The notes beneath the pieces were generated by a model. It saw only the letters and a program-made list of their open reading frames with translations. It had not been told where the DNA came from and searched no databases. Below, piece by piece: positions 1-5,310 of a stretch of 6,900 nt of DNA. This DNA is from Candidatus Wukongarchaeum yapensis (GTDB lineage: Archaea; Asgardarchaeota; Wukongarchaeia; Wukongarchaeales; Wukongarchaeaceae). How positions within the stretch are numbered: position 1 is the first letter of the stretch; the number at the start of each line of letters is the position of its first letter. Made by a program: the position numbers and the translations under genes. The DNA lies in NCBI GenBank assembly GCA_016840425.1, contig JAEOSI010000123.1, positions 1 to 6,900 on the forward strand, read 5' to 3'.

Positions 1-8
1 CCGCCTGT

Positions 9-26
9 AAAAAACGCTTCATAGCG
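9..26 (-). terminator. Candidate terminator downstream of tRNA-Glu
   Basis: On the minus strand a small hairpin CGCT-ATGA-AGCG is followed directly by T6, starting about 34 nt after the CCA end. Confidence 0.35.
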
Positions 27-76
27 ATGTTAAAAGTCGAGGGATTATGGAAGGAATGTTGGTGCCGCGGAGGGGA

Positions 77-119
77 TTTTCGCCATATTCTACGTTAGAA
101 AGGTTTTAGTGATTACGGT
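77..119 (-). other. 43-nt tRNA intron in the T-loop (position 59/60)
   Basis: Strict hBHBh' motif: outer helix AGGGG/CCCCT, central helix TTCG/CGAA, bulges AAA and AAT, inner helix CCGTA/TATGG. Splicing restores the T-loop TTCGAAT. Confidence 0.9.
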
Positions 120-161
120 TTCGAACCCCTGTCGCGAGGGCGAAAGCCTCGAATGCTTGGC

Positions 162-192
162 TTAACCCTCTCCAAAACTACTAGTTGAGAGT
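162..192 (-). other. 31-nt tRNA intron in the D-loop (position 18/19)
   Basis: Helix AGCC/GGTT, bulges AGA and AAG, inner helix CTCTC/GAGAG. Cutting after the second nt of each bulge restores the D-loop AGCCAGGCCAA with G18G19. Confidence 0.85.
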
Positions 193-268
193 CTGGCTAC
201 ACTACCGCGGCACTTAGGGTTAATTAGGTTTTGAAATCTTTTACGTAACATATTTATCTACTTTTCTT

Positions 269-282
269 TTTATAAATTTTTC
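269..282 (-). promoter_or_regulatory. BRE + TATA box, probably the tRNA-Glu promoter
   Basis: The minus strand reads GAAAAA-TTTATAAA, a purine-rich BRE directly 5' of a consensus archaeal TATA box, about 60 nt upstream of the mature tRNA 5' end. Confidence 0.55.
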
Positions 283-366
283 AAAAGGATAAAGGATAAA
301 AAGTAGTTGATCCTACTTATTTTTTGAATTACTAAAGGCTTTGAAGATGCCTGTTGAGTTTTCCGA

Positions 367-462
367 GGGCCCGTAGCTCAGCCTGGTAGAGCGGCAGGCT
401 CATAATTCCAGTCGATATGAGAAACCTGTTAGTCAAGGGTTCAAATCCCTTCGGGCCCACCA
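367..462 (+). tRNA. tRNA with CAU anticodon, most likely tRNA-Ile2 (agmatidine type); intron 405-423; CCA encoded
   Basis: Acceptor stem GGGCCCG/CGGGCCC; D-arm GCTC-AGCCTGGTA-GAGC; anticodon stem GCAGG/CCTGT with CAT at 401-403; T-arm AAGGG-TTCAAAT-CCCTT; ACCA at 459-462. The mature length is 77 nt. The G1-C72/G2-C71 GGGCCC acceptor is typical of archaeal Ile tRNAs. The initiator has A1-U72 and elongator Met usually starts GCC. Confidence 0.9.
405..423 (+). other. 19-nt tRNA intron at the canonical 37/38 position
   Basis: The intron's TGAG (418-421) pairs with CTCA (399-402). A 3' bulge AAA (422-424) precedes the CCTGT anticodon-stem strand. Confidence 0.88.
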
Positions 463-572
463 ATTTTTAAAATGAAAAGAGGGAGAAAATTATTTGTTCT
501 TCAAGAAGTTATAAAAGACATCCTAGTTGAAGATTGAGGGGTGAGAGGGAAGCAAGATAGTAATTTAAAGGG

Positions 573-1604
573 TTATTTTTCGTTTTTTTGGTTGTTTTTT
601 GAAATTGACAAAAATAGTGAGCCTAAAAAGACTGCTAAAATCTCTATGAGAAGGCGGGTCATTACAGTTAATAGTATTCCTGCGGTGGCTATTACCTCGC
701 CTATTCCTCCGATTTTTGCTAGTACTAAGATTGCCATTACCGCGCCTGCCCCCAGTTCACCTGGTCCTGAGGAGACTCCTACGAAATTACTTAAACCTAT
801 GGCAAATATTAGAATTTTGAGGGACGCTTGTACGTCGAATGCTAAAAGGGCGAAGTATAATACTAGTATTTCTATTGCCCATCTGATTCCTGTTAGAAAA
901 GTTGCTGTTATCAAGGGCTTTCGATCGAGATGTATATATTGCTTTATTGCACGGTAATATCTTTCAACCACGTTCAGGATTTTTTCGGCTATTTTTTTTC
1001 CTATTTTACCTAGTTTACTGAAGACTTTAGCTAGTTTTTCAAAGAACGCTTTCCCTAATCTTTCCCACAAGAGAGCAAGGAGGATGAAGGACCATATTGC
1101 GAAAGCGATTGCTGCTGCCACTGTGAATAAACCCCACTCAGCAGCGTATTCTTTACCAGCAGTTAAGAAGAAAAATATGACCATTAATCCTATCGCTATG
1201 CAGTCTAAAAGACGGTAGATGAAAATGGCTGCGCCTACGTCTCCAAATTTCATTTTTAAAAGTCTACGTTTGACTTCAACCTTTCCTACTTCTCCTAGTG
1301 TTGGAGGGGATGCGACAGTCAAACTATAACAGAAAAAATAAACAGGCAGGAAGTTAGTTAGATTTAGATTTTTGTTTATTGCATTGAAAAGTTTGTAAGA
1401 TCGATAGCCTTTTGTCAGGAGTCTTAGTGTCGCAAAAGTGAGGACTAGGACTACAAATTTTATTTCCGCTTCTTTAAAGACGTTAATTAGTTTCGATGGA
1501 CCAACCTTCCAAATGACGAGGGAGAGAAGAAAGACAGTTATTAAAATAGCCATTTTACGATAGCTTTTCTGTTCTTCGTAAGTGTTTTCGGGCAGAAAGT
1601 TCAT
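573..1604 (-). CDS. UPF0104 / lysylphosphatidylglycerol-synthase TM-domain (flippase-like) membrane protein
   Basis: 343 aa with about 8 hydrophobic segments and family-like motifs: R after TM2 (KGYRS), P..LGEVGK, YRLLD, a central basic amphipathic stretch, PGELG and a late R (TRLL). A GGAG lies upstream of the ATG. Confidence 0.75.
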   Translation of the reverse strand: MNFLPENTYEEQKSYRKMAILITVFLLSLVIWKVGPSKLINVFKEAEIKFVVLVLTFATLRLLTKGYRSYKLFNAINKNLNLTNFLPVYFFCYSLTVASPPTLGEVGKVEVKRRLLKMKFGDVGAAIFIYRLLDCIAIGLMVIFFFLTAGKEYAAEWGLFTVAAAIAFAIWSFILLALLWERLGKAFFEKLAKVFSKLGKIGKKIAEKILNVVERYYRAIKQYIHLDRKPLITATFLTGIRWAIEILVLYFALLAFDVQASLKILIFAIGLSNFVGVSSGPGELGAGAVMAILVLAKIGGIGEVIATAGILLTVMTRLLIEILAVFLGSLFLSISKNNQKNEK

Positions 1605-2420: not shown

Positions 2421-2497
2421 GCTTTTATTTTGAATTGAGAATTTCTGTGGACGGGGTTGTTTAAGGTTTTTATTGCAACGAGGAGGTTGCTTTGTCC

Positions 2498-3124
2498 ATG
2501 AATAGAAAAGAAAACGAGGAAAATAAAGGAAAACGAGGAAAAATAGAGAGATTTGTTTTGCCCGGCGATTTGTTAGGAGTTATTGAGGAGTTTGTTCCTG
2601 GAGATAACTGTTACGTAGAGGACGGAAAAATCTATTCTAACATCGCTGGATATTTATTAGTTGATAAGGCTAAACATAGAGCAAACATTATCCCTGGAAA
2701 TCCGCGACAAAAACTTCCTAAAGTAGGAGATAAGGTTGCAGGTATAATTACATCCACTATGAGAGATTCAGCGACTATAGAGTTTTCCATGGTAAATGAG
2801 GAAAATATAGGGTTACCTTTTACAGGATTGGTGCATGTAAGCCAAATTTCTAAAAAGTTTGTTGAAGATGTTTTCGCAGCAATGCGGCGAGGGGACATTA
2901 TAAGGGCAAGAATAATTGATGTAAAGTTTTTGCCTTTTCAATTGGCTACTAACGAGGGAGATTTAGGGGTGATAAGAGCGCATTGTACTAAGTGTGGTGA
3001 ACCCTTAGTTAAGATGGAGAGAGACCTGCTCGAGTGTCCCGCTTGCGGTTTAAAGGAGAAAAGGAAGTTAGCGAAAGATTATATCCAGCCTCGCTTTTCC
3101 ACAAAAGATAAACACCACAACTAG
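2498..3124 (+). CDS. csl4: Exosome complex RNA-binding cap protein Csl4
   Basis: N-terminal VLPGDLLG..EEF.PG domain, S1 domain (PKVGD...G.VHVSQIS...GDIIRARI) and a C-terminal Zn ribbon CTKC-x14-CPAC ending in ERKLA-like EKRKLA. SD GGAGGT at 2482-2487. The alternative start is TTG 2492. Confidence 0.93.
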   Translation: MNRKENEENKGKRGKIERFVLPGDLLGVIEEFVPGDNCYVEDGKIYSNIAGYLLVDKAKHRANIIPGNPRQKLPKVGDKVAGIITSTMRDSATIEFSMVNEENIGLPFTGLVHVSQISKKFVEDVFAAMRRGDIIRARIIDVKFLPFQLATNEGDLGVIRAHCTKCGEPLVKMERDLLECPACGLKEKRKLAKDYIQPRFSTKDKHHN

Positions 3125-3173
3125 TCCTATATTACTTTTTTCTTAAAGCTTTTTTATAGAAGGGTATCTTTTA

Positions 3174-3827
3174 ATGGGACAATTTGGAAAAAAACATTTA
3201 AACATCTCAATAAAGAGCCAGAAAGAGTTAGAGATGTTTATTGATTTTATAACTAAGACGATTAAATACTGTAATTTTTCCCTTAAAACTAAAGGTTTTA
3301 ACTGCAAAATATCGATCTTGGGGGATAAAGCTGCTCAAAAATTGGCTATAACGACGATTAGAAAGATTCATTCAAATATCAAAAAAGCACTCTATCCTTC
3401 AGCAGAGGGTACTTATGCGTATAGTAGTCAGTTGTTGGCTAAAGTAGTTGGTTTCCCCGTTTCTCAGGAAATGCTGGTAGAGGTTTTGCAGAGGAAAGGT
3501 TTCAGAACCCATATCAAAAAAGATATTTTGGTCACTAATTTGGATTTAAACGGCGTGAAAGAAGAAGCGCAAGACTTATGGAGTAACATAAACTTCTTCA
3601 ATAATCTAAATATGGCCAGATCCTTAAGACACACCTTAGCAATCGCCGCCACCGTTATGGAATTATCACCCCAATTTATGGCTGAAATGGCTACGGAAAA
3701 AAGTTTAATAAAAACTTTAAATGGAAAATATTATTTGAAAGTAAACCCCCAACAAGCTCTAGAAGAACTTTTAGCTGAAAAAAGCCAAAACGAAGCAAAA
3801 ATCAGGCAAAGAAGTGAAAAAACATGA
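3174..3827 (+). CDS. Conserved archaeal hypothetical protein, probably DUF2067 family
   Basis: 217 aa lying between csl4 and rpo11, the usual position of DUF2067. Its sequence pattern fits my recollection of the family (EL..F...I; LYP..EG.Y.Y...L....G...S...LVEVL...G). This is recognition from memory, not an HMM result. Confidence 0.7.
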   Translation: MGQFGKKHLNISIKSQKELEMFIDFITKTIKYCNFSLKTKGFNCKISILGDKAAQKLAITTIRKIHSNIKKALYPSAEGTYAYSSQLLAKVVGFPVSQEMLVEVLQRKGFRTHIKKDILVTNLDLNGVKEEAQDLWSNINFFNNLNMARSLRHTLAIAATVMELSPQFMAEMATEKSLIKTLNGKYYLKVNPQQALEELLAEKSQNEAKIRQRSEKT

Positions 3828-4123
3828 TGATAAAACAGTTAAAACTCGAAGAAAAAATGATTGAAATCGTGATTGAAGGAGAGGGACACACCTTTCTTAA
3901 TATTTTAACCCAAACACTCCAAGAAAATCCAGACGTGAACTTTGCAGCTTACATAATAGACCATCCAAAGATAAGCCATCCACGGCTAGTAGTTTCTGTA
4001 AGCGATGGAACCCCCTTCGAAGCTATAATGGAAGCTACTAAAAAATTGGAAGAAAAAAGCCAAGAATTTATTGAAAAATTTACAGAAGCATTCAAAAAAT
4101 ACAAAGATAAAAAGGAAGAGTAA
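3824..4123 (+). CDS. rpo11: DNA-directed RNA polymerase subunit Rpo11 (L)
   Basis: 99 aa with the RPB11/RpoL signature IEGEGHTFLNIL...L...PDV.FAAY.IDHP. It overlaps the upstream stop via ATGA. Confidence 0.96.
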   Translation: MMIKQLKLEEKMIEIVIEGEGHTFLNILTQTLQENPDVNFAAYIIDHPKISHPRLVVSVSDGTPFEAIMEATKKLEEKSQEFIEKFTEAFKKYKDKKEE

Positions 4124-4166
4124 AAAGGAAAATTAGAGAGGAAAGGTTCCTGAGAGGTTACATATT

Positions 4167-4679
4167 TTGCCTAAAACTTCGAAGGGAGACAATGATAAAA
4201 GCGGGGAGTACTTAACTTCAGGCTGGGAAAATTACCTCAAAAAATTTAGATCTTTCCGTAAGATCCTTAAAAATAAAAATTTAGCACGATTAGGAGATGC
4301 CTTAATTAATTTTGCATATTCCCTAGCTAAATCAAGAATAGAAGGGATCCCGACAGGGGTAAAGGTGCAAGATAAAGCCCTAGCAGAAGCAATAAGAAAA
4401 ACGAAGTTGAAGAAAGTTTTGCCTCTAAGAAGCAAAGAAGATGCGCTAGGAGACGCCGTAGAAGCCCTATGCGCTTACACCTGGTTAAACCAAACGATCA
4501 CAATTGAAGAAATGGTTGAAACACTACAAAACGCCCTCCAAGGAGAAGACATGACGCACCCAAGACTGGAAAAAAAAGCTTGCACAAAAGCCTTCAACGA
4601 ACTACTAAACAAAATAGTCACCAGACACGAAAATTTAGAAAAAAAGATTATACAACCACAACAACAACAAAAATCATAG
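4167..4679 (+). CDS. Archaeal ribonuclease III-like protein (Mini-III-like, no dsRBD)
   Basis: RNase III-type motifs LARLGDALINF and LGDAVEAL..Y.WL in a single 170-aa domain. TTG start with SD GAGGT (4154-4158) 8 nt upstream. Confidence 0.8.
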   Translation: MPKTSKGDNDKSGEYLTSGWENYLKKFRSFRKILKNKNLARLGDALINFAYSLAKSRIEGIPTGVKVQDKALAEAIRKTKLKKVLPLRSKEDALGDAVEALCAYTWLNQTITIEEMVETLQNALQGEDMTHPRLEKKACTKAFNELLNKIVTRHENLEKKIIQPQQQQKS

Positions 4680-4710
4680 AAAAAATAAAGAGATTGCAGG
4701 GGCAGAAATC

Positions 4711-5310
4711 ATGAACCCTGAACTACCCACCATACACCTAGATAAGAAAGGATTACGTGTCTTAGGAATCGCTGAAAGCTTCTATAAAGAAAAGGGAGGC
4801 AAATCAGTTCTCGCAGGAGTTGTGATGCGAGCAGACAAAAACATCATAGATGGCACTACTTTCACCAAGATAACAGTAGGGGGCATGGATGCAACTGAAG
4901 GAACTTTAAAAATTTGGAACCAATTAAAAAGACCAGATATAAACGCGATATTTTTAAACGGCTGTGTTATCGCCATGTTCAACATAATTGATTTAGAAGA
5001 GGTTTGGAAGAAAACCGAAAAACCGCTAATATGCATTACCTACGAAGAAAGTGAAGGATTAGAAAAATACCTAGAAGAATTAGAGAACAAAAAAGAGAGA
5101 GAAGAAATATATGAAAAAAACGGACCAAGAGAGAAGATAACAGTTCACACAGGACACGAAGTCTACATAAGAGCTCTTGGCATAAATACCGACCAAGCCA
5201 TAGAACTTCTAAATAAATTCATTATCCAAGGCTCAAAAGCAGAACCAATAAGAGTGGCAAGAATACTAGCAAGAGAAATACTAAAATTCCTCCATAACTC
5301 AAACGGGTAA
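4711..5310 (+). CDS. DUF99 / UPF0215 family protein (endonuclease V-like fold)
   Basis: RVLGIAESF, LAGVVMR.D..IDG, ITVGGMDAT, G...AMFNIID...V, PLI.I.YE and a C-terminal EPIRVARILA, all typical of DUF99. Confidence 0.85.
   Translation: MNPELPTIHLDKKGLRVLGIAESFYKEKGGKSVLAGVVMRADKNIIDGTTFTKITVGGMDATEGTLKIWNQLKRPDINAIFLNGCVIAMFNIIDLEEVWKKTEKPLICITYEESEGLEKYLEELENKKEREEIYEKNGPREKITVHTGHEVYIRALGINTDQAIELLNKFIIQGSKAEPIRVARILAREILKFLHNSNG

Follow-up and report, generated by a model that had tools for sequence, protein, structure and literature searches.

The window, by which we mean the whole stretch of DNA analysed (6,900 nt, positions 1 to 6,900 of contig JAEOSI010000123.1 of Candidatus Wukongarchaeum yapensis), carries close to its start a tRNA-Glu(UUC) gene on the minus strand that is interrupted by two introns. 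A divergent tRNA-Met(CAU) gene and a row of protein genes lie further along. The features are the following.

211..60, minus strand: tRNA-Glu(UUC) gene, with two introns and an encoded CCA
193..211, minus strand: exon 1, 19 nt, comprising the acceptor 5' strand, U8 A9, the D-stem 5' strand and the D-loop as far as G18
162..192, minus strand: intron 1, 31 nt, in the D-loop between G18 and G19, of the relaxed HBh' form
120..161, minus strand: exon 2, 42 nt, from G19 to A59
77..119, minus strand: intron 2, 43 nt, in the T-loop between A59 and U60, of the full hBHBh' form
60..76, minus strand: exon 3, 17 nt, comprising U60, the T-stem 3' strand, the acceptor 3' strand, the discriminator A73 and CCA (62..60)
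367..462, plus strand: tRNA-Met(CAU) gene, divergent, with an intron of 19-21 nt at or beside the canonical anticodon-loop site (Rfam tRNA, 60.8 bits)
2492..5310, plus strand: gene row encoding a Csl4-like exosome subunit, DUF2067, Rpo11 (RNA polymerase subunit L), PF11469 (an RNase III-like protein) and PF01949 (Endonuclease dU protein), preceded by a class I methyltransferase gene and followed, on the other strand, by the gene for A/V-type ATPase subunit B

Exon 2 contains the remainder of the D-arm, the anticodon arm, a 4-nt variable loop, the 5' strand of the T-stem and the UUCGAA of the T-loop, and an intron at 37/38 is absent from the gene. In the unspliced precursor (~152-155 nt), no tRNA was called by ARAGORN, and the Rfam tRNA model gave no match over the gene, neither at the gathering score nor at E<=10. 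When both inserts were deleted, ARAGORN called a perfect 78-nt tRNA-Glu(ttc). The spliced molecule is a class I cloverleaf with a 7-bp acceptor stem, the D-loop AGCCAGGCCAA containing G18G19, the T-loop UUCGAAU and a 7-nt anticodon loop, CUUUCGC, which includes U33 and the anticodon UUC. When the whole length of the mature sequence is compared, its identity to uninterrupted tRNA-Glu genes from other Asgard families amounts to 76-78%. Given that only the removal of the inserts yields a flawless tRNA-Glu(ttc), the coordinates, the anticodon, the lengths and positions of the introns and the lack of a 37/38 intron, as given in a preliminary description of this locus, are correct. Its prediction that standard annotation would miss the gene was borne out for ARAGORN and for the Rfam tRNA model. 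The neighbouring tRNA-Met(CAU) gene was called by ARAGORN, when run without intron mode, under the wrong label tRNA-Tyr(ata).

Positions 1-144 of the window recur, without any difference, as the final 144 nt of another contig of the same assembly, C268 (G000:C268:11605-11748), so that the tRNA-Glu gene straddles a seam of the assembly graph. This is what might be seen if the gene were an artefact, produced by a chimeric join at a contig end. However, a JGI contig (L139) is identical over window 1-700 and extends 361 nt past the window start, and the whole gene is also contiguous in single contigs of the DNA runs X5 and X12, in the congener (G001) and in a metagenome contig (L141). Since the JGI contig bridges the region, the 144-nt overlap with C268 reflects a seam of the assembly, not a chimeric join, and an artefactual gene is hardly conceivable.

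The defining feature of introns in archaeal tRNA genes is their splice motif, the BHB, which consists of a 4-bp helix between two 3-nt bulges, cleavage occurring behind the second base of either bulge (PMC4090602, PMC5829648). The bulges lie on opposite strands, the cuts fall on the exon borders, and removal of the intron restores a canonical cloverleaf with its invariant bases. In intron 2, the outer helix is formed by the T-stem itself (AGGGG:CCCCU), the central helix is UUCG:CGAA, the bulges AA|A and AA|U are 3 nt each, and the intron helix is CCGUA:UAUGG. This complete hBHBh' structure was recovered unaided by RNAfold as the local minimum-energy fold, and the register test gave H 4/4, h 5 and h' 5. 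By sequence alone the border of intron 2 could be placed at 57/58, 58/59 or 59/60; the BHB is in register at 59/60 only.

The border of intron 1 has no such ambiguity in the sequence. Its central helix is AGCC:GGTT (GGUU in RNA), with a 3-nt 5' bulge, AG|A, and an intron helix CTCTC:GAGAG. The 3' cut, AA|G, falls within a 7-nt loop closed by the D-stem, as against the 3-nt bulge of the strict motif, and the register test gave H 4/4, h 0 and h' 5. When registers from -3 to +3 were tested, the 4/4 central helix was found at shift 0 alone in both introns. We also compared the introns with dinucleotide-shuffled versions of themselves, counting the trials in which a 4/4 central helix was joined by a flanking helix exactly at the boundary. 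For intron 1, this combination was reached in 0.4% of trials; for intron 2, in 2.7%. Both inserts have the features by which archaeal BHB introns are recognised, intron 1 belonging to the accepted relaxed HBh' class and not to the strict motif.

The folding energy of the D-loop region leaves room for another reading of intron 1, which we consider unlikely: that the T-loop intron is spliced as its motif indicates, and that the D-loop insert is cut in another register, depends on a helper factor, is removed inefficiently or is kept as an enlarged D-loop. The HBh' conformer, which lacks an outer exon helix, was calculated at -7.7 kcal/mol versus -12.4 kcal/mol for the optimum (local 50 nt, 37 C), i.e., ~4.7 kcal/mol above it, and was not produced in the minimum-energy fold of the region. 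In a census of 90 Asgard genomes, many D-arm inserts are described as having no canonical motif, and some as perhaps not being introns (Goswami 2026, bioRxiv 10.64898/2026.10.13.758758). In Methanopyrus kandleri, moreover, the EndA endonuclease cut the D-loop HBh' intron of its own organism poorly in vitro (PMC5829648). Against this reading, the 4/4 helix of intron 1 occurs at shift 0 only, and retention of the insert would part G18 from G19, which are invariant contacts of the tRNA elbow. The paralogous gene and the endonuclease of the host, described below, bear on the same question.

Other kinds of insert were also considered. Self-splicing group I or II introns possess a ribozyme core of hundreds of nucleotides; with lengths of 31 and 43 nt, the inserts had no match to any Rfam intron family even at E<=10, so this candidate was rejected. 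A mobile or repeated intron was rejected as well, since a search of the host's own genome for further copies of either intron found none. Inspection of both introns by eye revealed no box C/D-like motifs.

A second tRNA-Glu gene of the same layout was found elsewhere in the genome.

G000:C123:14590-14709 (L084:1501-1620), plus strand: tRNA-Glu(CUC) paralogue, hidden, in that the Rfam tRNA model gives no call

In the paralogue, a 15-nt intron at 18/19 and a 25-nt intron at 59/60 occupy the two sites that are interrupted in the UUC gene as well. Their central helices are the same as those of the UUC gene and their interiors differ; the first intron takes the HBh' form with a 3-bp intron helix, and the second the hBH form. 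In the shuffle test described above, the corresponding proportions were 1.0% and 1.8%. That the D-loop insert has its central helix and AA|G junction preserved in the two paralogues, despite their differing interiors, argues against the idea that this insert is cut in some other way or kept. About 180 nt separate the CUC gene from a tRNA-His gene upstream of it, which bears an insert of its own.

Neither a BLAST search with the mature sequence nor the 26 Rfam tRNA matches of the host genome (92% complete) revealed any tRNA-Glu gene beyond these two; in particular, no intron-less one was found. In the assembly of G001, which is 87% complete, the CUC paralogue was not detected.

To follow the variation of the gene, we used the congener, metagenome contigs and sequencing runs. 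In G001, the sole other species of the genus, the exons of the ortholog are identical; intron 1 has one substitution, and intron 2 has one substitution and a 1-nt deletion. A pattern scan of metagenomes yielded one further locus only, the contig L141, in which both introns are kept, both intron loops are changed and the anticodon stem shows a compensatory exchange from C28:G42 to U28:A42. Among the DNA runs X3, X5 and X12, which come from different studies, differences within the gene occur only at window 92, 94 and 180; the first two lie in the apical part of intron 2 and the third in the apical loop of intron 1. The other differences of these contigs are in the flanks, with zero in exons, and no intron-less DNA form was seen in the three runs. 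Runs that contain DNA of this organism come from marine sediment, mangrove and marsh. Exon 1 is identical in G001, L139, L141, X3, X5 and X12, and exon 3 is free of variants in all assemblies and runs examined. Paralogue pair and strain variants together make up a small natural experiment, in which the intron interiors drift and the core of the splice motifs and the exons stay fixed.

These data bear on whether the gene is a decaying pseudogene, that is, a former tRNA-Glu gene broken by two insertions and now out of use. Its escape from standard tools would agree with such a fate, as would the RNA run X20, a leaf-litter metatranscriptome and the only RNA run to share words with the stretch, in which window 1-360 received no cover. 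However, this run shared 18% of the sampled words and its cover was limited to the tRNA-Met exons and to window 442-692, so that it is uninformative either way on expression of the Glu gene. The exons are invariant or compensatory across five independent sequences in which introns and flanks vary, both Glu isoacceptor genes have the same layout with no intact alternative found, and the BHB motifs stand in exact register. Given that the exons are fixed or compensatory, that the introns vary and that no rival tRNA-Glu gene was found, a pseudogene is very unlikely. We regard it as almost certain that the gene is functional and that its splicing follows the ordinary archaeal pathway.

In the same RNA run, a 251-nt contig at window 442-692 showed 4 differences and low depth. 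It spans the end of the tRNA-Met gene, the spacer and the 3' end of a gene for a PF03706 (LPG_synthase_TM-family) membrane protein, and may represent DNA carry-over or a relative. The tRNA-Met exons are so highly conserved that, in DNA runs, sequences of other organisms bring them to hundreds-fold depth.

We then looked at the splicing enzymes encoded by the host. The sole catalytic EndA gene, coding for an alpha subunit, lies at G000:C113:735-1346, and its best relative of solved structure is the alpha subunit of the Aeropyrum pernix endonuclease, an (alpha-beta)2 enzyme (3P1Z_B, match at 1.7e-49). The alignment is gap-free across the crenarchaeal specificity loop and places K58 and K60 opposite K44 and R46 of A. 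pernix. In that enzyme the loop residues K44 and R46 confer broad specificity; K44 permits the cleavage of relaxed motifs, and the whole loop permits cleavage of D-loop introns (PMC3241643). Possession of this type of EndA with a specificity loop by Asgard archaea was reported by Kaneta et al. (PMC5829648). The presence in the host alpha subunit of the very loop lysine by which the A. pernix enzyme cuts D-loop and relaxed motifs speaks further against an aberrant fate of the D-loop insert.

The congener encodes a beta-like EndA paralogue without the catalytic His (G001:C55:77-799, L133), on the contig that also carries its tRNA-Glu gene and ~9.3 kb upstream of the latter. In G002, too, there is a second EndA-family match. 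No beta counterpart was detected by tblastn in the host's own 92%-complete assembly, the adjoining contig C268 included. The RNA ligase RtcB is encoded in the host genome (586 bits). The host thus encodes, besides RtcB, an EndA predicted to be able to cut relaxed motifs.

The reading that we favour, with a probability of roughly 0.88, is that 211..60 on the minus strand is a functional Asgard tRNA-Glu(UUC) gene with two protein-spliced BHB introns, which would be cut by EndA and their flanking exons joined by RtcB. The gene would be transcribed as a precursor of ~152 nt, in which the 59/60 intron would extend the T-stem into a canonical hBHBh' and the 18/19 intron would form a relaxed HBh'. 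EndA, made up of the crenarchaeal-type catalytic alpha subunit with its specificity loop and probably of a structural beta subunit as (alpha-beta)2, would cleave each bulge behind its second base. RtcB would then join the three exons into a 78-nt tRNA with its encoded CCA. Splicing itself and the order of the cuts are what we infer from these features. The elbow, i.e., the contact between D-loop and T-loop, would form only after splicing, and it is reasonable to infer that the precursor is unable to form it before.

The host was placed by means of actin. A full-length actin (PF00022) was found in its own genome with 445 bits and in 38 of the 41 genomes of a phylum sample, as compared with none of 14 controls that included four archaea. 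To our knowledge, Asgard archaea are the only prokaryotes with such actins. Since the protein is present in the host and in the phylum sample and lacking from the controls, the host is an Asgard archaeon and lies outside Thermoproteales. AtpB was uninformative for host placement, as its best 80 loci are mostly bacterial, with a Thorarchaeota MAG first at 67%. The class of the host contains three species genomes only.

Interrupted tRNA genes are the rule in this genome. Among the Rfam tRNA matches that span from the acceptor 5' strand to the acceptor 3' strand, 22 of 24 are 92-149 nt long. At least three further tRNA genes are invisible to Rfam, those for Glu-UUC and Glu-CUC and a tRNA-Asp gene with apparently three inserts. 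Because automatic annotation drops the gene described here, the genome looks devoid of tRNA-Glu. Most tRNA genes of the host are interrupted, many of them at non-canonical positions and more than once, as in published Asgard genomes; with nearly all other tRNA genes measuring 92-149 nt, splicing is a housekeeping need.

The preliminary description had also supposed that a host outside Thermoproteales and a few other archaeal lineages would extend the range of multi-intron tRNA genes. This claim is not new, because such genes with non-canonical introns have been published for Asgard archaea (PMC11291895; Goswami 2026). In three complete genomes of Atabeyarchaeia and Freyarchaeia, 92-95% of tRNA genes have introns, often non-canonical and multiple (PMC11291895), and the tRNA-Glu(UUC) gene of Atabeyarchaeia-1 itself has two introns, one of which was missed by tRNAscan-SE (Valentin-Alvarado 2024, PMC11291895). 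The census of Goswami (2026) found D-arm introns to be those overlooked by annotation, T-arm introns to possess the cleanest motifs, and intron positions to be specific to lineages (bioRxiv 10.64898/2026.10.13.758758). The present genome resembles these cases in belonging to the same phylum, in having most of its tRNA genes interrupted and in having several introns per gene. It also agrees with the census in its D-arm introns that annotators miss, its clean T-arm BHB and its lineage-specific positions. Unlike Atabeyarchaeia and Freyarchaeia, the host stands in another class, that of three species genomes.

The closest likeness outside the phylum is the pre-tRNA-Glu(UUC) of M. kandleri, a two-intron gene for the same tRNA with a D-loop intron of the relaxed HBh' type, which lies at 20b/21 and whose processing has been shown (PMC5829648). 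The sites differ: 20b/21 and the canonical 37/38 in M. kandleri, as against 18/19 and 59/60, without 37/38, in the host. Moreover, the specificity loop, present in the alpha subunit of the host, is missing from the EndA of M. kandleri. Position 59/60 is listed as a known tRNA intron position (PMC4090602). The known intron shares with ours the site, the T-stem as outer helix and a T-loop UUCG/UUCA central helix; it belongs to a different host lineage and a different tRNA, and its hBH form is matched by the CUC paralogue of the host, whereas the UUC copy has the complete motif instead.

In Thermoproteales, which belong to another phylum, up to three introns per tRNA gene have been reported (Sugahara 2008, as cited in PMC4090602 and PMC4033280). 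Multiple protein-spliced introns at non-canonical sites are common to both, and the endonuclease of Thermoproteales is an (alpha-beta)2 enzyme with the crenarchaeal specificity loop. Many of the introns there are similar copies across genes (PMC4090602), in contrast to the two single-copy introns of the host. A literature search, with SPLITSdb, Sugahara 2008 and the supplement tables of Goswami (2026) outside its scope, returned nothing relevant on an intron between G18 and G19. What may be new is limited to the exact G18/G19 site and the thinly sampled class of the host.

To compare the intron sites, tRNA-Glu was inspected in ~25 Asgard genomes. When 40 relatives were searched by BLAST with the precursor, the congener was the only match, so that the mature sequence was needed, and then used, as query. 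A splice-aware aligner forced spurious introns in distant genomes (e.g., L104, L108 and L115), and these rows were left out. tRNA-Glu is uninterrupted in families f6 and f16, as is the UUC gene of f12. The 59/60 intron stands alone in the CUC genes of f12 and of G002, a genome from the order of the host; a D-loop intron near 20b/21-21/22 is found in tRNA-Glu of f9 and f10, and the UUC gene of G002 has a single intron in the variable region. Among the ~25 genomes, the pair of 18/19 and 59/60 was observed in the host genus only.

The mature UUC sequence is identical to CUC-type genes at 59-65 of 75 positions versus 51-58 of 75 for UUC-type genes of other families. It also shares the CUC-type acceptor GCCGCGG and T-stem xGGGG, as judged from mature tRNA-Glu of G000, G002, G012, G016 and L141. 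These sequence likenesses suggest that the UUC gene is an anticodon-switched copy of a CUC-type gene that replaced the ancestral UUC gene, and such copying would explain the common intron sites. In the likely course of events, the 59/60 intron would already have been present in the CUC-type gene of the order and the 18/19 intron would have been added in the line of the genus; the UUC gene would then have arisen from the CUC type by duplication and anticodon change, with both introns carried along. Taken as a whole, this history, with an uncatalogued G18/G19 site gained in one genus atop the older 59/60 intron and an anticodon-switched replacement of the ancestral gene, is put forward tentatively, and we rather doubt that it holds in every part. 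If true, it would mean that two introns were inherited together through a tRNA identity-preserving recruitment event.

The tRNA-Glu(UUC) gene does not alter current knowledge of the working or the distribution of such introns. It is one well-documented tRNA-gene case from the closest prokaryotic relatives of eukaryotes, in a genome-poor Asgard class. Given that, according to the Asgard census, splicing in an Asgard cell has been demonstrated for none of its newly found inserts (Goswami 2026, bioRxiv 10.64898/2026.10.13.758758), a gene with two clean, conserved introns and an EndA gene to match offers a usable test case.

Elsewhere in the genome, at G000:C276:1845-2190 on the plus strand, lies a tRNA-Asp(GUC)-like gene that seems to contain three inserts, one behind the D-arm, one behind the anticodon loop and one within the T-arm. 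Next comes a tRNA-Lys(UUU) gene with an interrupted D-arm, and the same layout is present in G001 (L129).
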